Shown piece after piece: positions 1 to 50,883 of a DNA stretch of 64,000 bases. Every line of letters begins with the position of its first letter. The first letter of the stretch is position 1. The translations under genes and the position numbers were made by a program. The notes beneath the pieces were generated by a model. It did no database searches and had not been told where the DNA came from. It was given only the letters and a program-made list of their open reading frames with translations. The stretch spans positions 1 through 64,000 of the IMG/VR virus record IMGVR_UViG_3300013902_000013; one strand, given 5' to 3'. The DNA is from a virus. Lineage: Duplodnaviria > Caudoviricetes.

Positions 1-514
1 TCCAACTTCCAGTTCCACCAGAACCGATAACAGAAGAACCAGGACTGGTATTAACACCTGTATTAGTATATAAAATAGGAGCGGCTCCTCCTCCTCCCTG
101 GGCTTGATATAAAATAATTTTATTTGAAGAGATGGAACTTTCACCTCCAACCTCGCCTGAATTACCATAGGCATATCCAAATGATCCTCCTCCAGTACCT
201 CCTTTACCACCATCTCCTCCTTTACCAACTATTAAATTTAATAGAGTATTTTTGGGAAAATATTCATAAGCGGCAAACATTAAACCAGCACCTCCACCAT
301 TTCCTCCTCCGCTAACCTTGCCAGAGCGGGTATTGATATAAGGCCAACCGCCAGATCCACCTCCACCCCCTCCAGACATGAGAATGTAATACCAACCTGT
401 TTTTGAAATAGTATAAGAATAAGAGCCTGCTGTTGTAAAACTTTGAAAATTTTGCTCAGAGATTTCTATATTACTATTATTGTTTTGTCCTAACAAAATT
501 CCATTTATAGCCAT
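1..514 (-). CDS. Glycine-rich tail-fibre-like protein with GILLG N-terminus (partial, runs off window edge; not in the supplied ORF track)
   Basis: Hand translation from ATG at 514 (RBS AGAAAGGA upstream) is open to position 2: MAINGILLGQNNNSNIEISEQNFQSFTTAGSYSYTISKTGWYYILMSGGGGGGSGG...LIVGKGGDGGKGGTGGG. This is the pattern of phage Gly-rich tail domains. Confidence 0.8.
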   Translation of the reverse strand, partial: MAINGILLGQNNNSNIEISEQNFQSFTTAGSYSYTISKTGWYYILMSGGGGGGSGGWPYINTRSGKVSGGGNGGGAGLMFAAYEYFPKNTLLNLIVGKGGDGGKGGTGGGSFGYAYGNSGEVGGESSISSNKIILYQAQGGGGAAPILYTNTGVNTSPGSSVIGSGGTGSW

Positions 515-638
515 TAAAATCATCCTTTCTATCAGTCTCAGAAACCCACAATATTTGAATTGTTAATTATTACCATTTTAATTAAATAAAAAACATGTTA
601 TAATAAAATAAAAAGATTAAGAAAAGAAAGGCGCTACA

Positions 639-1259
639 ATGGAAACATATGGATATGCAAGAGTTAGTAGTCATGAACAGAAATTAGACAGACAGTTAAG
701 GGCACTAATTGACGCGGGAGTGGTTGAAGATCATATATTTAGTGACAAGGCCTCAGGCAAGGATTTTAACCGTCCATCTTATCAAAGGCTCATGAAGGTA
801 ATTAAAGAGGGCGATACCCTAATTATAAAATCTTTAGACAGGCTCTCGCGCCATTACGAGGAAGCGCTTCAAATGTGGTCAGAGCTAATCCAAAAGCGCC
901 ATATCCAGATAAAAGTAATTGATACACCTTTTCTTAACACTAATAATGAATTAGGTGAAATGGGAATATTTATTAACAATCTTATAGTAAATGTATTATT
1001 CTTTAGTGCTGAACAAGAGCGCAAATTCATCAAACAGCGCCAAGCAGAGGGTATTGCAATAGCGAAAGAAAAAGGAGTTGCGTTTGGGCGCCCAACTAGA
1101 AAGCTTCCAGAAAATTTTCCAATGATTTACAATCTGTGGAAAGAAGGTTATCCAATTACTGCGCTCTTGCAATTTGCTGATGGTTACTGTTATAGCACTT
1201 TGCGCAACATGTTAAGAGACCCAAAAAAATATGGTGCTGATATGGACAAATTATTATAA
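639..1259 (+). CDS. Small serine recombinase (resolvase/invertase family)
   Basis: N-terminal YGYARVSS...QKLDRQL catalytic motif, SGKDFNRP, LDRLSR, EQERKFIKQRQAEGIAIAKEKGVAFGRP and a short HTH-like C-terminus; 206 aa. Confidence 0.92.
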   Translation: METYGYARVSSHEQKLDRQLRALIDAGVVEDHIFSDKASGKDFNRPSYQRLMKVIKEGDTLIIKSLDRLSRHYEEALQMWSELIQKRHIQIKVIDTPFLNTNNELGEMGIFINNLIVNVLFFSAEQERKFIKQRQAEGIAIAKEKGVAFGRPTRKLPENFPMIYNLWKEGYPITALLQFADGYCYSTLRNMLRDPKKYGADMDKLL

Positions 1260-1307: not shown

Positions 1308-1691
1308 ATGGAACAATATATATATCAGATTATAGAAGCGCTGGGTGCAATTCTCAGTATCGTACTTATTCGTCTTTTGCATAACTTTGCTACAAAGGCT
1401 AGGCAAGAGGCAAAGAATGAGAAAGCTAATTTCTATATAGACCTGTTAGAAAAAGCTATCTCAGACGCGGTTTCCGCTACGAACCAGACCTATGTAGATG
1501 CACTCAAGGAACAGGGTAAATTTGACGAGAGCGCGCAGAAATTTGCTTTTAATAAAACTAAGAAGGCAGTTATGGATGTTTTAGGTGAAAATGGTCAGAA
1601 AATACTGGAAGCCGCAATTAAAGATTTAGACGCTTATATAGATGCTAAAATTGAAGCTGCGGTTAAAGAAGAGAAAATACTCACAAAATAA
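1308..1691 (+). CDS. Putative holin (LL-H-like)
   Basis: One N-terminal hydrophobic helix followed by AVSATNQTYVDALK...KF and IEAAVKE, typical of LL-H-type holins; AGGAGG RBS. Confidence 0.65.
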   Translation: MEQYIYQIIEALGAILSIVLIRLLHNFATKARQEAKNEKANFYIDLLEKAISDAVSATNQTYVDALKEQGKFDESAQKFAFNKTKKAVMDVLGENGQKILEAAIKDLDAYIDAKIEAAVKEEKILTK

Positions 1692-1730
1692 GAAAAAGGG
1701 TAGTAACATAAGTTACTACCCTTTATTTTT
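1692..1730. terminator. Bidirectional intrinsic terminator
   Basis: 13-bp inverted repeat AAAGGGTAGTAAC / GTTACTACCCTTT with A- and T-rich flanks between convergent genes. Confidence 0.85.
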
Positions 1731-2037
1731 ATGTGATTCGTGAGAAAATTTTATTGGCTTGTGTAATAATTTCAAATCCATATGTAGCTATTAAGTCAGC
1801 AATAAACTCTTCTAGTTCCGCGCTCATGACGACATTATAACTGAACATCGCGGCATGGGTAATCTCATGAGCTAGAACCTTCCATGTTAAAGATTCGTCT
1901 AAGTTATCTACGATATAAATGCCCTTGGTTTGCCAGTCACACGCGCCTATGGTCCAAGTTCCGTCAGACTGGCGCATTTCTGGGTGATTGGGAGATACAA
2001 GATATATCTCCCATTTAATGTTATTAATCTTTATCAA
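1729..2037 (-). CDS. HExxH metallopeptidase-like protein (ImmA/IrrE-like fold)
   Basis: VLAHEITHAAM motif followed by EEFIAD; last gene of the 4613->1729 operon. Confidence 0.65.
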   Translation of the reverse strand: MIKINNIKWEIYLVSPNHPEMRQSDGTWTIGACDWQTKGIYIVDNLDESLTWKVLAHEITHAAMFSYNVVMSAELEEFIADLIATYGFEIITQANKIFSRIT

Positions 2038-2615
2038 ATTCTATTCACAAGACCTGCCATCTTATTCCTTAATAAATCTTTTTCCTCTTGTGATAAATCA
2101 TTTATTATTTCTATCATATCTTGAGTTAAATCATTCATGTATTTATCTAATTCTTTCATTTTAGTTTCTTTATCTAAATGACCTTCGCGCGCTTCCATAT
2201 AGCCTTTTCTTGAAAGCCCACTTCTTCCCTCGCGCGAGTCCCGCTTCATGGTCGGCACTTTAGTTTCACGGTATGGACCTATAGCATCATCATACTCGGA
2301 ATAGCGTTCGGGCTTCATTCTGATTCCCGCGCGGTCACCATGATAATACATTCTATAAGGCTCGTCTTGTTCATATCTATCTCTGTCATACATTGGATTA
2401 GGATAATATGGGATTTCTCTAAAGTAACGCTTTCTACCATATTCATCTTTTTCTTCCATTGCTTCTACTATTGTATGATAATAACAAGCTTCTTCAAGGT
2501 CTTTAATCATGTCTACGACTTCACCCATCTCATGCGCATCTACATTGCCCAGGTCTCCGATCTGACCCTGAACCGCCGCGATTAAAGTCTTTTTTATTGT
2601 TTTTAAATCTTCCAT
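2034..2615 (-). CDS. Hypothetical protein, charged and helical (unknown module gene 5)
   Basis: 193-aa ORF, translationally coupled to its neighbours. Confidence 0.8.
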   Translation of the reverse strand: MEDLKTIKKTLIAAVQGQIGDLGNVDAHEMGEVVDMIKDLEEACYYHTIVEAMEEKDEYGRKRYFREIPYYPNPMYDRDRYEQDEPYRMYYHGDRAGIRMKPERYSEYDDAIGPYRETKVPTMKRDSREGRSGLSRKGYMEAREGHLDKETKMKELDKYMNDLTQDMIEIINDLSQEEKDLLRNKMAGLVNRI

Positions 2616-2616
2616 A

Positions 2617-3036
2617 TTACGCCACCCTTTCTACAATTAAATTTGCATTTTGAATGTCTACGTTTACTCCACTAAGATTTTTGATACTTATAGAATAATT
2701 ATCTCCACGAGGAACATTTAAAAACATGCTTGAAAATACATTAAAATAATCACCAACTGCAGTAGGCGTTACTATCATTGAAGTTGAAGTATTAGCTTCT
2801 CCATCTATTGCAAGAGCTAAAGTAATTGGTCCAACTGTAGAACCTGTTGTAAGCGCTACATTTCCTCCAAATGAAATTCTAAAGCGGGAGCGACACTGCT
2901 GTGTCACTCCTCTAAGATTAACTAACCCAGAGCCTTGCCTATGGATTATGCTACATGACCCCGGAACCGCAGTTGCTGTAAATAAAACGTTTCCGTTTGA
3001 AGCTACTGTTTGAACAGCATTAGCAGTTATTTCCAT
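2617..3036 (-). CDS. Hypothetical beta-sandwich protein, possibly BclA-CTD/C1q-like (module gene 4)
   Basis: 139 aa of alternating beta-strand pattern (FRISFGGNV, ITLALAIDG, SISIKN, NANLIVERV). The fold call is inference. Confidence 0.6.
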   Translation of the reverse strand: MEITANAVQTVASNGNVLFTATAVPGSCSIIHRQGSGLVNLRGVTQQCRSRFRISFGGNVALTTGSTVGPITLALAIDGEANTSTSMIVTPTAVGDYFNVFSSMFLNVPRGDNYSISIKNLSGVNVDIQNANLIVERVA

Positions 3037-3050
3037 ATACTACTCCTTTC

Positions 3051-3917
3051 TTATGCGAGTGCGCCAGTATTATAGTTGCAACCGCATCCACCATAGTTAT
3101 AATTATAAGAACCAGTATAAGGATTTGGTACTACATATGCTGGCATTGCAGGTTTCGCGCCAAGTTGCTGTACAAGGTAAGCGTTCTGAGCTTGCTGTGA
3201 AGCCGCAAACTTAAGTGACTGATTTTCTGCTGTGAGCGCAGCAAGCCTGTCCTGAGTTAAGAAGTCAAGGATTGAACGAGTGTTTGCGTTCTGATTATCA
3301 ATTATGTCTCTTGCACTATCTGTTACCGCCTGTCTGGTCTGACACTCTTGGGTCGCGAGATTGTAGTTAAGGTCTGAGAACCCGGTCGTGATAGCTTGAC
3401 GGGTGTCACAACAACAGCTAGCCTGTTGAGCCGCCATGCTATTCAGCTGTGCGGTAATCGCGTTTGTATTCTGCATATTTGCAACAGTGTTAGAGTTGAT
3501 AGACTGTAAAATATCATAATCACCATTGGTAATAGTATTCTGAATAGTATTAAAACCTTGACAAAGTGAACTCTGTAAAGCGGCAGTATTATTTGCTCTT
3601 GCTAATGCGGCACTAGCAAAACCTTCTGATGTACCAGTAAATCCTGCGTCTATTGCGCGAGATAGATTATTAAAGTTTCCTTCTTCGCAGAGGTCAGCTC
3701 TTGTAAGCGCGCCCTGGAACGCCGGAGAATTTGCTGTACCTCCGCCGAAGCCACCTCTACCAAAGCCATCCCCGTAACCGAAGCCGCCCCAACAGAACAT
3801 TAGGATAAGGATCAACCACCAGCCATCGCCTCCCCAGCCTGAGTCTCTGTTACCATAACCGCCCGTAGCCGCAGCGATATCTGCTAAACTATAACCATTA
3901 GTATTACCGTTAAACAT
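3051..3917 (-). CDS. Gly/Cys/Asn-rich hypothetical protein with a hydrophobic segment (module gene 3)
   Basis: GGDGWWLILILMFCWGGFG hydrophobic stretch, SCCCD and GCGC cysteine clusters, coiled-coil-like C-terminal half. Confidence 0.8.
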   Translation of the reverse strand: MFNGNTNGYSLADIAAATGGYGNRDSGWGGDGWWLILILMFCWGGFGYGDGFGRGGFGGGTANSPAFQGALTRADLCEEGNFNNLSRAIDAGFTGTSEGFASAALARANNTAALQSSLCQGFNTIQNTITNGDYDILQSINSNTVANMQNTNAITAQLNSMAAQQASCCCDTRQAITTGFSDLNYNLATQECQTRQAVTDSARDIIDNQNANTRSILDFLTQDRLAALTAENQSLKFAASQQAQNAYLVQQLGAKPAMPAYVVPNPYTGSYNYNYGGCGCNYNTGALA

Positions 3918-3926
3918 AAATTTCTC

Positions 3927-4178
3927 CTATCTACGGAGCATTTCTTTTAATTCTGAGCTTGTTTTATCAAAATCCATTCCTTTGGCTTGGTACATATTTC
4001 TTACAATTTGTTCCATGTCATTTGTTTTATGTGAATTTGCAAGAGCTAAGAAATTTTGAGCCATTGGATTTTGAGACGCGTTTTGCTGTAGCATGCTCAT
4101 TACAATTTGCTGTGGATTTGCCCCGTTTTTCAGTTGCATTATAACTTTTAGTCTGGGGTCCATCTGCATATTATTCAT
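3927..4178 (-). CDS. Gln/Met-rich hypothetical protein (module gene 2)
   Basis: 83-aa ORF with RBS; NPQQIVMSMLQQ...NPM pattern. Confidence 0.75.
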   Translation of the reverse strand: MNNMQMDPRLKVIMQLKNGANPQQIVMSMLQQNASQNPMAQNFLALANSHKTNDMEQIVRNMYQAKGMDFDKTSSELKEMLRR

Positions 4179-4190
4179 TCTTTTCCTCCT

Positions 4191-4613
4191 TTAAAAATTA
4201 ATATCTAAAGGCTTCGCGGCAGGTTGTTCAGGAGTAGGGGTTGACGCCTCTATAGGCGGATTTTGCTGATTTTGCTGCAAAAGCGCGGTTAGCTTAGATA
4301 TAACATTATTGAATTCTTCTCTTGTAATATAATCTCCTTCTGAGAATTCAAAGTTGTTAGGAATCTCTTTTAATACATACATCTTAAGTGGCGCAGTTCC
4401 GTCCATCTGAAATTGTTTGGTATAAATACGGTTATTTGCTAAATCTGGAAAATAATTTATCATACCATCAAAGTCTATGGCGATTGCTCGCGCCTCTTCT
4501 ATAGAGGATACCGGTCTACCCTTTAAACCTGTCGGAGGAGCATTATAGATTGGCGCTCTAGGTGGGATATTTATCCCTTGAGCGCCGGGGTAATAATTAT
4601 TGTTATTCAACAC
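4191..4613 (-). CDS. Hypothetical protein (module gene 1)
   Basis: 140-aa ORF with RBS AAGGAG; Pro/Asn-rich ends flank a globular core (GRPVSSIEEARA...YFPDL..NRIYTKQ). Confidence 0.8.
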   Translation of the reverse strand: MLNNNNYYPGAQGINIPPRAPIYNAPPTGLKGRPVSSIEEARAIAIDFDGMINYFPDLANNRIYTKQFQMDGTAPLKMYVLKEIPNNFEFSEGDYITREEFNNVISKLTALLQQNQQNPPIEASTPTPEQPAAKPLDINF

Positions 4614-4708
4614 AATTCTCCTTTCTTGGAATTTATATTATACTTTAAACCCCTTCATTTATTATAAAAAATATAAGAAGATAATTGTGAATGTTCGTAA
4701 CTGTAATT

Positions 4709-4766
4709 TCCGACAAGATTCTACAAATTTCGACAAATTACTGCGCTCAGCTTACTGGATTCGACA
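4709..4766 (-). promoter_or_regulatory. Cluster of Spo0A (0A) boxes upstream of the 4613->1729 operon
   Basis: Minus-strand TGTCGAA at 4729-4735 and 4760-4766 (both in TTTGTCGAA context), plus one-mismatch TGTAGAA at 4719-4725 and TGTCGGA at 4709-4715. Three boxes are exactly 10 bp apart. TATAAT lies at 4661-4666 with no consensus -35. Confidence 0.65.
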
Positions 4767-4788
4767 AAACAGTAAGCTCAAAAAAGCA

Positions 4789-11982: not shown

Positions 11983-14439
11983 TTATTGTGGATAAAAAGT
12001 AAATAAGTTAATCGCTTTACTATTTTCTTTACTCATAACAACAGTTATTGTATTCGTATCAAAACTAATACTTTCTATATTACTATAATCTTCATTGTCT
12101 TTATCTTTACAAACTACCATAGGTTGTTTATCGCTTGTAAAATTATTTGCAACAGAAAGAACAACTTGTACCTTATTATCTGAAGTAGTAGACCAAGTGC
12201 CTGTTCCAGAAGATTTAAGTGGAATGGTAAAATTTGTCTTTATAGTTGTCGCCGCGGCAACCTGTCGACCTAATTCATTACAATAATCTGTTAGAACATC
12301 TACTTGGTCATCAATCTCTGCTGCACTATATACACTTAAATTCTTGCGCGCCTGCTCTACGGTCGTGGCACCAGTTCCGCCATGCGCAATATCTATGGTA
12401 GAACTCTTAAAGTTATTTAAACTTGTTTGAATAGTATTTATTTGACTTTGCATATTTGAAAAAGCATCATCAAATACAGTGTCATCATCTATAGACACCT
12501 TTAAAGCTATATCTTGAGTTTCAAATGAAACATCTTCTGACATTTTTTTTAAGAGGGCTTCATCGAAATTCAAGATTCCACCTCTTGATACTTGATTAGA
12601 AGTTGTTATAACTCTTAGTTCAGTTAATTTTTTAACAGTGCTATCTATTGATTTAAGACTATTATTTAATGTTGTAAGCTGTGTTGTAAATTCACTATTT
12701 TTCTGATTTATATAATTAACAGTATAAGTTTTATCCATTGCGCCTGTACTATCATAAGTATTTTGCAATAGAGTAGCTAAAGAGCCTGCGCTTCCAGTAA
12801 CTTTGATAGAATCCCAAACACCAGCATCTGTCTTAAATACCCAATATCCATTTATTTCACCTTCACTATTGGTATAGTCTACACTAAACAAATTAGCTGA
12901 AGTAGCTGTATGTCCGTAAACTGCTTCTGCAATAGCACCAAATTGAGCTACATCTGCAGCGTTATTTGGATTAAGATTACCCTTGTATTTTCTTGTATCA
13001 ACTTTTGTATATCCAGAAACCGAAGCATCATAAGTAAAATCATAGTAATCTGCTATAGTGATTGGTGCGCCGGTATCACCCTTGTCACCCTTTTCTCCAG
13101 TATCACCTTTATCGCCCTTTTCACCTTGAACACCCTGTATTCCTTGGTCACCTTTTTCGCCTTGAACACCCTGTATTCCTTGGTCACCTTTCTCGCCTTG
13201 GATACCTTGTATACCTTGCTCTCCTTGAATACCTTGGTCACCTTTATCTCCTTTATCACCTTTTTCACCCCTAATATTGCATTGTTTGATCCAAGCACCG
13301 TTGGTCGCACGATAAATGTCCCAAGTATCGTTTCTAAGATAAAAGTCTCCATTCAAAGAGCCAGAACCTATGGTTGGTAGACTAGTACCTGCGCGCCACA
13401 CAGAAGGCTTTGCAAGAGCAAATGAAAGTTGATAAGTATTTGCATCTTTAATTGCGCCAGTCACTGCGGTTTTGCTTACATCATCTGGGGCGAGTGTAGA
13501 GAATGTGGTTGTAAATAAAGAGGTTTTAGGTAAATTCAATTTTAAGCGCCACTGGGTATCGTCCATGACTGAACTTGCGGTTGGTGTAGATGCTATCCAA
13601 GAACTTCCATCTTTAATGAAAGGGGAAAGAACCGTAGTATCAACCCCATCGAGCTGACGCGCGAGCGTAGCACAATACTTAAAAGTATAAGTTGTGCCAT
13701 TTACAGTGGTACAAAGATAAGTATTACCATTTTTACTATTTACGTAATAATCTCCAGAACCAAATTTTACACCATTTAATTCATCTGTAGTTATTGTTGT
13801 TGTTGTGTCACTTTTATTGGTAAGCTTAGTTCCATATAAATAAGTTAAACCTTTAGGTAGCTTAAAGTAAATGTTTGGATGCTCCGCATCAGAACTATCA
13901 ACACTTGCTTTTGGTTCTTGGTTAGTAAATATCCATTCACTATCCACAGTTATAATAGGGACATTACCAGTTAATGAAGCAACCAAATGATAACCAATGC
14001 CGAAATCATCATTTATCATATATTTATCCATACCATTTACTGGGTCTATACGTTCATCTTCAACTACAAGTTTATCATCACTAGTATAACATTTTTCCCA
14101 AATTGTAGTATTGAAAAGTTTTCCGTCTGCTACATCTTTATAAGTTCCATCCTTTTGTAAAGTAGGCACTTTATATTCTTTGTCAATTTGTCTATTGTAT
14201 TCCCAACGAGTTAAATCTTTAGTAAAAGTATAAGTTTGACCATAACATTCTTTAGTTTCTGCTTTTTGATAAATTGTTTTATCCGCAGGATTACCATAAT
14301 TTATAAAAACAAGTTCATTAATACCAATATTAGAATTCCAACGTGCTTGTAAATCTTCAAGCATTTCGGCTTTATTTTCAAAAATTTTAGCTATTCTAAA
14401 GCTTTTGCCTTGCTTACCACCATAAAAACTCATATCCAT
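11983..14439 (-). CDS. Tail fibre protein with collagen-like (G-X-Y) segment
   Basis: 818 aa; about 23 consecutive G-X-Y triplets, a coiled-coil and an IAHGGTGATT...ARKNL fibre motif. Confidence 0.8.
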   Translation of the reverse strand: MDMSFYGGKQGKSFRIAKIFENKAEMLEDLQARWNSNIGINELVFINYGNPADKTIYQKAETKECYGQTYTFTKDLTRWEYNRQIDKEYKVPTLQKDGTYKDVADGKLFNTTIWEKCYTSDDKLVVEDERIDPVNGMDKYMINDDFGIGYHLVASLTGNVPIITVDSEWIFTNQEPKASVDSSDAEHPNIYFKLPKGLTYLYGTKLTNKSDTTTTITTDELNGVKFGSGDYYVNSKNGNTYLCTTVNGTTYTFKYCATLARQLDGVDTTVLSPFIKDGSSWIASTPTASSVMDDTQWRLKLNLPKTSLFTTTFSTLAPDDVSKTAVTGAIKDANTYQLSFALAKPSVWRAGTSLPTIGSGSLNGDFYLRNDTWDIYRATNGAWIKQCNIRGEKGDKGDKGDQGIQGEQGIQGIQGEKGDQGIQGVQGEKGDQGIQGVQGEKGDKGDTGEKGDKGDTGAPITIADYYDFTYDASVSGYTKVDTRKYKGNLNPNNAADVAQFGAIAEAVYGHTATSANLFSVDYTNSEGEINGYWVFKTDAGVWDSIKVTGSAGSLATLLQNTYDSTGAMDKTYTVNYINQKNSEFTTQLTTLNNSLKSIDSTVKKLTELRVITTSNQVSRGGILNFDEALLKKMSEDVSFETQDIALKVSIDDDTVFDDAFSNMQSQINTIQTSLNNFKSSTIDIAHGGTGATTVEQARKNLSVYSAAEIDDQVDVLTDYCNELGRQVAAATTIKTNFTIPLKSSGTGTWSTTSDNKVQVVLSVANNFTSDKQPMVVCKDKDNEDYSNIESISFDTNTITVVMSKENSKAINLFTFYPQ
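13070..13272 (-). repeat. Collagen-coding repeat, including a near-exact 36-bp tandem duplication
   Basis: Units at 13124-13159 and 13160-13195 (CCTTGAACACCCTGTATTCCTTGGTCACCTTTYTCG) encode GEKGDQGIQGVQ twice. Confidence 0.85.
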
Positions 14440-20101: not shown

Positions 20102-20170
20102 AAAAAAGCCTCCTTTATCTCTTCTCATTTATTATAAAAAATATTTACAATAGATGATAGAAAAATGCCC

Positions 20171-49120: not shown

Positions 49121-50239
49121 TTATAGAGGTCTGACCTTTTTATTTCGACATTCTTTACAAATACTATAGAGTCCATCTTTGCTTGTTCTATTTCTAGTAA
49201 AATAACGTGGAATAGATAATTTATTCTGACCGCATTTTGAGCATCTTTTATATTTACCTTTTTCCTTTTCAGTGAAATACCAATTAAGCCAATCTTCTTG
49301 CGCCTGTTCTGCTATTGTATTAGGTATCTTGCGGCACCACAGCGAAGAGATGAATTCTTCAGAATATTCTACCTTAAATTCTTGCATTAACTTCTCTCGT
49401 ATTTGAGAATTTGTTTTTCCATCAATCTTCGCAATAGCAATAGCAAAAAGAATAGGATGTTTAGAAAGCGCGCGTTCGCTTAAAGCGTCAAAATCTCGTA
49501 CCGCGGACCACATATCAGAGTTAAGCTCCTCTGAGCAGTCCTGGTGCAACCGCGAGTAATTTTGAAGCATCTGCGCGCATACATCATTTCTTAAAAAAGA
49601 GAAACCTTTGATATCAAAGACACCCTCTTCATCTATTGAAATTTCCTCGTTTAAAAAGATAATCGTCTTAGTTTTTGTAATTGCTTTAGGAATAATAGGA
49701 GGTCTATTACTCATTTTCATTAAATACTGATCTCTTCTCATTTCTATAAGCATTTTCTTTATCGCATATTTATTTCTTTCATCAGACACCTCTTTTAATT
49801 TATCTTCCCAAAATTTTATTGTGTCGCGCAACTGCTGCAAATCTTTATTCTCTTCTATGTCACGCTTATTAATAGTAATTTTAGGAGCTAAAAGTACGTT
49901 TTTATTATCTGATGTTAAGTTATATATTCCATCTTCGCCGCCATCCAACTGAGAAACCAAGCCCTCAAATGAAGTTTCGCGTTTTGCTATAGTTGCCGCA
50001 CGGTTAGCAGTTGTGACCTCTTTGGTGCGCTCTTTCTTTTCTATTGCAAAAACTAAATAGTCGGCGAGGGTTTCTAATGTTCGAGAAGATGGATTAGGAT
50101 TCTCCGCCAGAAATTCATTCACCTTTTCTAAACGTTCTTCTGGTTCTGTAATTTTTTTATCTAATAACACTTGTTTTCTCAAAACCCTTCCGCTTTTATT
50201 TGCGATTATAAATAATCGTCTTTTTTCTTTCTTTACCAA
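49121..50239 (-). CDS. Hypothetical DNA-binding protein with a C-terminal Zn ribbon; first gene of the virion operon
   Basis: 372 aa; HTH-like region (AIAKIDGKTNSQIREKL) and CSKC...SICKEC. Confidence 0.6.
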   Translation of the reverse strand: MVKKEKRRLFIIANKSGRVLRKQVLLDKKITEPEERLEKVNEFLAENPNPSSRTLETLADYLVFAIEKKERTKEVTTANRAATIAKRETSFEGLVSQLDGGEDGIYNLTSDNKNVLLAPKITINKRDIEENKDLQQLRDTIKFWEDKLKEVSDERNKYAIKKMLIEMRRDQYLMKMSNRPPIIPKAITKTKTIIFLNEEISIDEEGVFDIKGFSFLRNDVCAQMLQNYSRLHQDCSEELNSDMWSAVRDFDALSERALSKHPILFAIAIAKIDGKTNSQIREKLMQEFKVEYSEEFISSLWCRKIPNTIAEQAQEDWLNWYFTEKEKGKYKRCSKCGQNKLSIPRYFTRNRTSKDGLYSICKECRNKKVRPL

Positions 50240-50250
50240 TTCACAAATAT

Positions 50251-50279
50251 ATTATACCAAAAATTTTAACCTTCGTCAA
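50251..50279 (-). promoter_or_regulatory. SigA-type promoter for the minus-strand operon
   Basis: TTGACG-17 nt-TATAAT with an extended -10 TG; a TGACGAA 0A-box sequence overlaps the -35. Confidence 0.7.
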
Positions 50280-50595
50280 GCTTATTTGCCCAAAAATTTT
50301 TCGGCGCGCCGGTCCTTGCAAAAGCAGTAAGAACAGTTGCGCGCCGCAGCAAATTTGACAACACAAAAATTTTCTGCTATAATTTTGTTGTAAACAAAAA
50401 ACAAACAAAAAAAGCAAAAACTGTGTTGAGGTCTAAACCAAAACCCTTTTATAAAAACTATAAAAAATATTATATAATAAATATATAAAGAAAAAGAAAT
50501 AAAGAAATTTGGAAAAAGTAAAAATTTATGATATAATAAATATATCAATTCACTTAAAAAAGTTATTACAAAAGGAAAGGAAAAAAAAGAATAAA

Positions 50596-50883
50596 ATGAA
50601 TTTAATTAATGAAAGCGCAAGTCGAAAGATCGATGACTTAGGTAGAATAACTATTCCTAAAAATATGAGAAAAAGATTAAATGTACATTCGGGAGAGGAT
50701 TTAGATTTCTATAGTTTAGAGCATGAAGGTAAATATTATGTATGCTTAACTTCTAAGCGGAATCCGCCATCTTATAAATATAAAATAGTAACAGATATTT
50801 TTAAAGAATATAATATAGAAGTACCAAAAGAATTTTTAGATGCAATAGCAAAAGAAACATTTAAAACAAGAGAAGAAGAATAA
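50596..50883 (+). CDS. abrB: AbrB/SpoVT-family transcriptional regulator
   Basis: Start re-called to ATG 50596; SRKIDDLGRITIPKNMRKRLNVHSGEDLDFY closely follows the AbrB N-terminal DNA-binding motif (RKVDELGRVVIP.ELRR.L.I...D.LEIY). Confidence 0.8.
   Translation: MNLINESASRKIDDLGRITIPKNMRKRLNVHSGEDLDFYSLEHEGKYYVCLTSKRNPPSYKYKIVTDIFKEYNIEVPKEFLDAIAKETFKTREEE

Follow-up and report, generated by a model that had tools for sequence, protein, structure and literature searches.

The sporulation regulator Spo0A recognises the core sequence TGTCGAA with A/T flanks (PMC2731898, PMC3485338), and the C. difficile protein reads the same box, contacting G2, C4 and G5 (PMC3485338). In the phages phi29 and Nf, Spo0A dimers protect pairs of these 0A boxes located 3 bp apart, and Spo0A prevents activation of the late promoter A3, which has no -35 element and whose -10 element is preceded by a consensus 0A box at a distance of 40 bp (PMC2731898). 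Moreover, receiver-less spo0A genes are carried by gut phages (PMC10294663). Here we describe an array of predicted Spo0A-type boxes upstream of a six-gene cassette (p1 to p6) in the first 64 kb (hereafter the window) of the 75.8-kb IMG/VR virus contig IMGVR_UViG_3300013902_000013 (Caudoviricetes). Two products of this cassette, p3 and p4, are predicted to form a rod and a knob, and the combination of a Spo0A-type box array with a rod-and-knob cassette is new here. The reading that we favour, with a confidence slightly better than even, is that a Spo0A-type operator was gained, in this lineage alone, by an otherwise widespread late accessory cassette.

The contig (34% GC) has an estimated completeness of 49% according to CheckV. 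Its structural genes form a long minus-strand block running from about 50.2 kb down to 4.8 kb, directly followed on the same strand by the cassette (4613 to 1729). The contig (G000) was compared with a 123-kb relative (G456, 79% complete), with three close relatives of the locus (L005, L086 and L169; 93–96% protein identity), and with a set of 80 loci from GTDB species genomes and 80 from IMG/VR, searched with profiles built iteratively from the six proteins of the window. L005 is an 11-kb, 94%-identical contig assigned to the metagenome-assembled genome (MAG) G001 by binning only. A previous sequence-only reading of the window had proposed a sporulation module driven by Spo0A; the six minus-strand open reading frames (ORFs), both terminators, the TATAAT and the four boxes on which it was built are all located where that reading had placed them.

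The main part of the array comprises three head-to-tail boxes on the minus strand, TGTCGAA (4735-4729), TGTAGAA (4725-4719) and TGTCGGA (4715-4709), in which 7-bp boxes alternate with 3-bp spacers, confirming the 10-bp phasing noted earlier. The distal box belongs to a repeat unit of about 31 bp with a shared GCTGAG part, the copy number of which varies among relatives, L005, L086 and L169 each keeping the array and having one additional unit. Perfect TGTCGAA cores number two in the window and three in these relatives, all of them in the context TTTGTCGAA(A/T). Across the window as a whole, the heptamer shows no enrichment (4 observed vs 5.7 expected). A chain of at least three boxes, defined by one mismatch at most in each box and a spacing of 10–11 bp, occurs a single time in the 75.8-kb contig, and 3.27 Mb strand-bases of related phage loci contain none beyond the orthologous sites in L005 and L086. 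In the 123-kb relative, three of the four occurrences of TTGTCGAA correspond to the array, the reversed control word being found 15 times. When the window, L005 and L086 are aligned, none of the 32 box columns is variable, versus 17 of the 135 other columns (Fisher p=0.022). Since the array is unique in the contig and in the other loci, and its box columns are invariant, we consider it a real cis-element, although little evolutionary depth separates the sequences compared. It resembles a Spo0A site in every feature readable from the sequence, and binding by a Spo0A-type protein appears somewhat more probable than its absence. The only other tandem 0A pair in 1.68 Mb of loci (L067:5705) spans the overlap between a p1 stop and a p2 start and was treated as a coding coincidence.

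The core promoter located between the array and p1 consists of the 20-mer ATATTTTTTATAATAAATGA, which contains a TATAAT and lacks a -35 element, as previously described for the operon; a second TATAAT located 24 bp downstream (Table 1) qualifies that description. The downstream hexamer is conserved in all four close sequences, and the distal one (4666-4661) reads TATAAC in L005, L086 and L169. The distal hexamer is the likely -10 element, because the motif ‘TATAAT, 3–4 nt, RTGARRGG’ preceding the leader is common to the nearest lineages, whose cassettes are 49–64% identical to that of the window. An exact copy of the 20-mer, devoid of boxes, is present in the tail genes, and the 123-kb relative retains both copies, with TATAAC at the cassette and TATAAT at the tail gene. 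ATATTTTTTATAATAAATGA is a candidate for a phage-specific promoter type without -35. The poor -35 had been interpreted as a sign of activation by Spo0A; the box-less twin in the tail genes indicates instead that the missing -35 is a trait of the internal late-type promoters of this phage. Similar elements combining a T-run with TATAAT or TATAGT are observed in other late gaps, at 9.9, 24.0, 33.7 and 49.1 kb.

The boxes extend from 42 to 105 bp upstream of the distal -10, the nearest one ending at 42 bp. Because this distance matches that of the blocked promoter A3 of phi29 and Nf, the earlier proposal that the module is switched on at sporulation is no better supported than the opposite proposal that it is switched off. 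The boxes do not overlap the core promoter, and the close relatives pair a worse -10 with an extra box unit, both of which point toward activation; the phi29-like geometry and the existence of the box-less twin promoter point toward blocking. Should a Spo0A-type protein bind the array, activation and blocking of the cassette would be about equally likely. No consensus promoter for sigma-H, -E, -K, -F or -G was seen upstream of p1 on reading the sequence.

The sequence-only reading expected the boxes to recur upstream of homologous operons, and this is not what we observed. The frequency of TGTCGAA is 0.108/kb in 72 gaps upstream of cassette operons vs 0.102/kb in 369 other intergenic gaps (0.43/kb vs 0.29/kb for TGNCGAA), and we detected no 0A boxes in the relatives at 49–64% identity, including the six-gene ones at about 50%. 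Other elements are present at the position of the array: two AAAGTGTCA repeats in L173-L180, two TGGGAAAATTT repeats in L170 and, in a large group of 45-kb phages, a small gene encoding a sigma-region-4-like helix–turn–helix (HTH) protein, followed by GATACTT repeats and a hairpin. In L118-L165, L051, L053, L054, L066 and L082, a conserved non-coding element is located about 150 bp upstream of the first cassette gene, between the end of the HTH gene and the cassette, which comes immediately after it; this element contains successively TGATACTT repeats, a GC-rich hairpin and a T-run. This HTH gene with its non-coding element looks like a dedicated regulator associated with a promoter or antiterminator site. 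The presence of different elements at the same place in other lineages suggests that the cassette is regulated as a unit of its own and that its upstream control has been exchanged repeatedly, the predicted Spo0A-type array being the solution of one lineage only. Tandem 12-bp repeats AAGTCATAGAAT (3–5 copies) were also observed just before the ribosome-binding site (RBS) of the first gene in L119, L121, L142, L156 and L160; their copy number differs between otherwise near-identical phages.

The cassette itself is widespread. The order p1-(p2)-p3-p4-p5-(p6) is syntenic in about 160 other phage loci, with a core composed of p1, p3, p4 and p5, p2 and p6 being often present. Many loci add an upstream gene, p0 (phrog_3754), whose consensus exhibits papain-like Cys and His motifs. 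The same-strand upstream neighbours encode holins, endolysins, portal/minor-head proteins or tail proteins, and the downstream genes are usually convergent and include those for dUTPase, integrase and RuvC. The position of the cassette in the late region differs among phages of 30 to 170 kb: for instance, it is located between head genes in Dulem virus 35 and after the lysis genes in Butyrivibrio virus Ceridwen and bajarodcaudo virus 5. A tblastn search of 50,697 phage records detected the cassette only in uncultured gut phages and in Ceridwen. The latter phage has been seen only in the lytic cycle, and the paper describing it is silent on the cassette genes (PMC7372960).

In eight loci (L013, L014, L022, L023, L024, L027, L037 and L079), the p3 gene is split only by in-frame TAG codons, five of which, out of 12, align with a consensus Gln, and p5 and p4 are also fragmented in several of these loci. 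The corresponding phages seem to decode TAG as an amino acid, probably Gln. Recoded stops in gut phages mark lysis and structural genes that are translated late (PMC10879173), and the in-frame TAG codons of p3 therefore suggest that the cassette is expressed late in the lytic cycle, at least in those lineages.

The product features listed by the sequence-only reading are present: CCC and GCGC clusters in p3, a Gln/Met-rich composition in p2 and an HExxH motif in p6. The p3 protein, whose family includes more than 7365 clusters at 90% identity, contains no Pfam domain and has received no name from any source. AlphaFold2 predicts a hydrophobic anchor (residues 33–49), Gly-rich disordered linkers, a single continuous helix of about 170 residues (82–252; about 25 nm, with a confidence of 75–88 along the helix) and a disordered Pro/Cys-rich tail ending in GCGC. 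The CCC cluster is located in the middle of the helix (168–170) and is kept in 135 of 137 homologues. The p4 protein was modelled with a pLDDT of 94.8, and Foldseek confirmed the fold resembling the C-terminal domain (CTD) of BclA that had been suspected from its sequence. The top solved matches were 9h38 (F-BclA CTD), 7r1m and 8d02 (ExsFA, BxpB) and 1wck (BclA CTD), with a probability of 1.00 and TM-scores of 0.75–0.79, and identities over the structural alignments of 10–16%. TNF ligands and phage fibre tips came next, viral look-alikes being abundant. We could not detect any Pfam, NCBIfam or PDB sequence match for p4, even with a profile of 48 sequences. The protein consists of the 139-amino-acid domain alone, with neither a collagen-like stalk nor an N-terminal exosporium-targeting region, and its gene lies in the phage late region. 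The motif VP(R/K/A)GCC is near-universal in the p4 family; only the window, L005 and L086 have VPRGDNY (residues ~108–114), in which the Cys pair is lost and an RGD tripeptide is created.

The p1 gene has a GTG start behind the RBS AAAGGAG; its family is present in 67 of 83 and 76 of 80 loci in the two sets and has no Pfam or PDB relative. The HExxH motif of p6 reads HEITH, and its Pfam score for Peptidase_M78 (ImmA/IrrE) is 19.8 bits, below the 22-bit cut-off. Searches of Pfam, NCBIfam and PDB sequences, and PDB profile searches, for a function of p1 to p6 yielded only coiled-coil noise, and only unnamed viral clusters were matched in the ESM Atlas. No hydrophobic N-terminal segment was detected in p1, p2, p4, p5 or p6, which suggests that any assembly containing p3 forms in the cytoplasm. 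We found no p3-p4 fusion in the approximately 160 loci; a single longer match (P0121) has the appearance of a chimeric gene call. We also considered whether the Cys motifs of the two proteins are linked and rejected this idea, p3 keeping its Cys-rich tail with or without p4.

Table 1. Position of the cassette, its control elements and other features in the window.
Feature	Position	Strand	Remarks
Distal box TGTCGAA, perfect	4766-4760	-	31 bp upstream of the array; inside the 12-nt gap between 9-bp inverted-repeat arms 4749-4757 and 4770-4778
Head-to-tail array TGTCGAA-ATT-TGTAGAA-TCT-TGTCGGA	4735-4709	-	Three boxes, 3 bp between each
Core promoter 20-mer ATATTTTTTATAATAAATGA	4655-4674	-	Likely -10 TATAAT at 4666-4661; no -35
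Second TATAAT, alternative candidate -10	4642-4637	-	Follows the first by 24 bp; kept in all four close sequences
p1, 140 aa	4613-4191	-	N/Y/P-rich N-terminus, small conserved domain, C-terminal coiled coil
p2, 83 aa, optional member	4178-3927	-	Gln/Met-rich, helical; 33-34 loci in each set
p3, 288 aa, predicted rod	3917-3051	-	phrog_16490, E=4e-38
p4, 139 aa, predicted knob	3036-2617	-	TNF/C1q/BclA-CTD-like jelly roll; phrog_20016, E=3e-46
p5, 193 aa	2615-2034	-	Acidic helical ends flank a Tyr/Arg/Asp-rich low-complexity middle; no family match
p6, 102 aa, optional member	2037-1729	-	Minimal HExxH metallopeptidase-like; phrog_1233 (function unknown), E=2e-15
Bidirectional terminator	1695-1724	.	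Common to the cassette and the convergent holin-like gene
Intrinsic terminator closing the upstream tail-gene unit	4824-4793	-	13-pair stem, then T-run; kept in L005, L086 and L169
Holin-like gene	1308-1691	+	phrog_13712; family also adjoins the cassette in at least 10 other loci
Small serine DNA invertase	639-1259	+	Resolvase domain, phrog_125; adjoins the Gly-rich fibre-like ORF
Gly-rich fibre-like ORF	2-523	-	Runs off the window end
818-aa tail-region protein	11983-14439	-	Collagen triple-helix repeat (PF01391, E=4e-10)
Exact box-less second copy of ATATTTTTTATAATAAATGA	20125-20144	-	42-bp gap ahead of a 1013-aa tail-region gene
Near-perfect sigma-A type promoter TTGACG-17-TGGTATAAT	gap upstream of 49121-50440	-	Heads the leftward structural block

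The availability of Spo0A in the host was examined from genome content. The MAG to which L005 was binned encodes a Spo0A_C domain. Spo0A is encoded in 48 of the 55 cassette-carrying genomes, a figure that says little because nearly all gut Clostridia, to our knowledge, have Spo0A; the seven genomes without it are implausible bins, e.g., Methanobrevibacter, Akkermansia or Bacteroides. A sample of 400 Bacillota genomes provided no further cassette carriers, leaving no power for an association between the cassette and Spo0A. Large cassette-bearing phage contigs (L017, L023, L030, L050, L060, L064 and L070) were found in MAGs labelled Methanobrevibacter, Akkermansia, Bacteroides, Endomicrobiaceae or Vampirovibrio; Spo0A was absent from all of those checked, and these placements are probably binning errors. 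Neither G000 nor G456, both incomplete, encodes a Spo0A_C or OmpR-type winged-helix DNA-binding domain, and a box binder encoded by these contigs was rejected on this basis. Several cassette carriers (G007, G020, G024, G026, G027, G039 and G040) contain 3–5 Spo0A_C matches, many of them in short ORFs of 110–180 amino acids, which may represent receiver-less Spo0A of the type known from gut phages. The putative host MAG G001 contains a perfect tandem pair, TGTCGAAAAATGTCGAA (L168:271-287), in the gap between mnmE and mnmG; it was rejected as a known Spo0A target, this gap not being one.

What became of the proposed Spo0A-driven sporulation module is therefore mixed: the boxes are genuine, do not occur by chance and follow the layout of known Spo0A sites, but the cassette is a widespread late-region unit that is controlled otherwise elsewhere. 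Spelled out in full, the proposal would be that phosphorylated Spo0A (Spo0A~P) turns the cassette on at the onset of sporulation and that its products (an ExsFA/BclA-like knob, a Cys-rich rod and Gln/Tyr-rich partners) are built into or onto the spore coat or exosporium, modifying the spore or letting the phage ride it. This can draw on the exosporium proteins that head the fold matches of p4, on partners devoid of signal peptides, like mother-cell coat proteins, on a Cys-, Gln- and Tyr-rich composition resembling that of coat proteins, on boxes located upstream of the core promoter, on the weaker -10 and extra box unit of the relatives, on the frequency of Spo0A among carrier genomes and on the sporulation regulators known in gut phages (PMC10294663). 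It is opposed by the homologous cassettes, which have other lineage-specific controls instead of 0A boxes and are embedded among lysis, head and tail genes with late-type TAG recoding. One carrier, Ceridwen, plaques lytically on Butyrivibrio fibrisolvens, a species described as non-spore-forming. The TNF/C1q fold is equally common in virus fibre tips, and nothing beyond this fold ties the proteins to spores; p4 lacks the collagen stalk and N-terminal targeting region of BclA as well as a Pfam match, its CC pair is lost precisely in this lineage, and no sigma-E or sigma-K type promoter is evident. We regard this proposal as improbable, as we do a spore-surface function of the cassette taken by itself; the version in which the phage senses sporulation through Spo0A sites and responds by producing a rod-and-knob, anchored in the membrane and similar to exosporium structures, that would mark or remodel the developing spore or travel on it is no likelier. 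A phage AbrB had been cited for the same theme. The gene in question (50509-50883) encodes a generic SpoVT/AbrB-domain protein (PF04014, E=6e-7), and this domain is common in phage regulators and antitoxins, which makes it weak support.

The boxes could also serve negative control of the phi29/Nf type: the -35-less late promoter would need a phage activator, and Spo0A bound about 40 bp upstream of the -10 would block it, keeping the cassette off in cells committed to sporulation. The spacing (42 bp here vs 40 bp at A3, where Spo0A prevents activation; PMC2731898) suits this explanation, as does the identical core promoter in the tail genes, which, if active, indicates that the boxes are not needed for promoter function. 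We nevertheless find it rather unlikely, as the boxes occur at this one promoter and at no early promoter or other late gap, whereas early promoters and origins are targeted in phi29; no phage activator site was identified, and the extra boxes and worse -10 of the relatives fit dependence on an activator better. Slightly less doubtful is the possibility that the boxes form an operator for a regulator other than Spo0A (a phage protein, or a response regulator of the host that recognises direct repeats), the match to TGTCGAA being convergent. In other lineages, the corresponding position is occupied by different repeats (two copies of AAAGTGTCA, two of TGGGAAAATTT, or GATACTT repeats with the small HTH gene), which suggests that lineage-specific regulators are the rule for this cassette, and the repeat unit of about 31 bp exceeds the box. 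Against this, two or three perfect heptamers in the TTTGTCGAA(A/T) context, in exact 7+3 register, would be a demanding coincidence, and the incomplete contigs of 75.8 and 123 kb encode no Spo0A_C/OmpR-type domain. To a similar, low degree, the cassette may simply provide parts of the virion that are dispensable (whiskers, head fibres or a tail accessory fibre, together with assembly helpers), in which case the promoter elements would only fine-tune late expression. It lies on the late strand, immediately following the tail genes in this phage and, in others, between the portal/minor-head genes and those for the capsid; the five products other than p3 have no secretion signal; the combination of a coiled-coil rod and a TNF-like tip is standard for fibres, and fibritin and fibre-tip matches were found; and TAG is recoded in frame, as in structural genes. 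However, the conserved hydrophobic WWIIILFLF segment and Gly-rich linkers of p3 would be unusual in an exposed fibre, the position of the cassette varies like that of a moron, and in several lineages it is insulated by terminators and has its own regulator.

Several points also weigh against the reading that we favour, a late accessory cassette that acquired a Spo0A-type operator in this lineage. Conservation of the boxes extends over a very shallow divergence only (at least 93% protein identity), at which a p value of 0.022 is a weak signal of constraint, and two of them deviate from the consensus, at C4 or A6. OmpR-type regulators likewise bind direct repeats spaced by 10–11 bp. A change at C4 cuts the affinity about 10-fold in vitro (PMC3485338). 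The host link goes through the binning of an 11-kb contig into a MAG, and the late timing is taken from other lineages and from promoter similarity. As for the proteins, p3 is modelled with low confidence beyond its helix (pLDDT 65, pTM 0.23), and the hydrophobic segment has less than the usual length of a transmembrane helix. The pairing of p3 with p4 comes from synteny only, with no fusions and with the Cys-rich tail of p3 kept in loci without p4.

With these points in mind, the following scheme can be proposed for the late cassette with its lineage-specific operator. The cassette would most likely build a fibre assembled in the cytoplasm, in which p3, with its short hydrophobic anchor, its single helix of about 25 nm and its Cys clusters, would be the rod and p4, with its TNF/C1q-like and probably trimeric jelly roll, the knob; the low-complexity proteins would act as helpers and p6 as a small peptidase. 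Expression would take place in the late programme, from a -35-less promoter of phage type, late timing in this phage being itself presumed. An operator of 4–5 head-to-tail TTTGTCGAA-type boxes would have been added upstream of the -10, only in this phage and its near-identical relatives. This operator may be bound by Spo0A~P of the host or by a receiver-less Spo0A that the phage itself would encode and that has so far escaped notice, and expression of the cassette would then depend on the stationary or sporulation state of the infected cell.

The surroundings of the cassette include two other elements related to fibres. The serine DNA invertase and the Gly-rich ORF at the left end of the window may constitute an invertible tail-fibre switch, and the collagen repeats of the 818-amino-acid tail-region protein indicate that a conventional collagen-type fibre is present in the phage as well.

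Among the unstudied gene sets of gut Firmicute phages, the cassette ranks with the most widespread, and a handle on the timing of its expression helps in finding its function. If the array is indeed read by Spo0A, the phage would couple one accessory function to the sporulation switch of its host, whereas in phi29 Spo0A acts on the whole lytic programme. This would add to what is known of how gut phages read or manipulate the dormancy of their hosts. If the boxes bind another factor, the finding shrinks to one more copy of the cassette.

Compared with other gut-phage rod-and-knob cassettes (phrog_16490 with phrog_20016), the window contains a full six-gene member in the same order, bounded by terminators and adjoining late genes; only this lineage has the Spo0A-type array and GDN in place of the near-universal GCC of p4. 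The cassette shares with phage morons its own promoter, flanking terminators and a variable insertion point in the late region, often between lysis genes and integrase. It differs from them in being a highly conserved unit of six genes rather than a single variable gene, and the in-frame TAG codons of recoded phages argue for late lytic translation, not for expression from a quiescent prophage. With ExsFA/BxpB and the CTDs of BclA and F-BclA from the exosporium of the B. cereus group, p4 shares the compact TNF/C1q-type jelly roll (TM-scores of 0.75–0.79), and with ExsFA/BxpB also a similar size, the absence of a signal peptide and a Cys-rich partner protein. In contrast to these proteins, p4 (10–16% identical to them) matches no Pfam family and lacks both a collagen-like stalk and an N-terminus for targeting to the exosporium; phages encode it, among them one whose host is described as non-sporulating, and its partner p3 is unrelated to ExsY/CotY. 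The closest parallel for the array is provided by the 0A boxes of phi29 and Nf (PMC2731898), in which the site of a host sporulation regulator is likewise present on a phage genome. In both cases TGTCGAA cores come in pairs with a 3-bp spacer, and one site precedes the -10 of a -35-less late promoter by about 40 bp. In phi29, however, the boxes are distributed over early promoters, the late promoter and the replication origins and together suspend the whole lytic cycle, whereas here a single predicted array of 4–5 boxes precedes one accessory cassette only, in a gut phage of about 150 kb.

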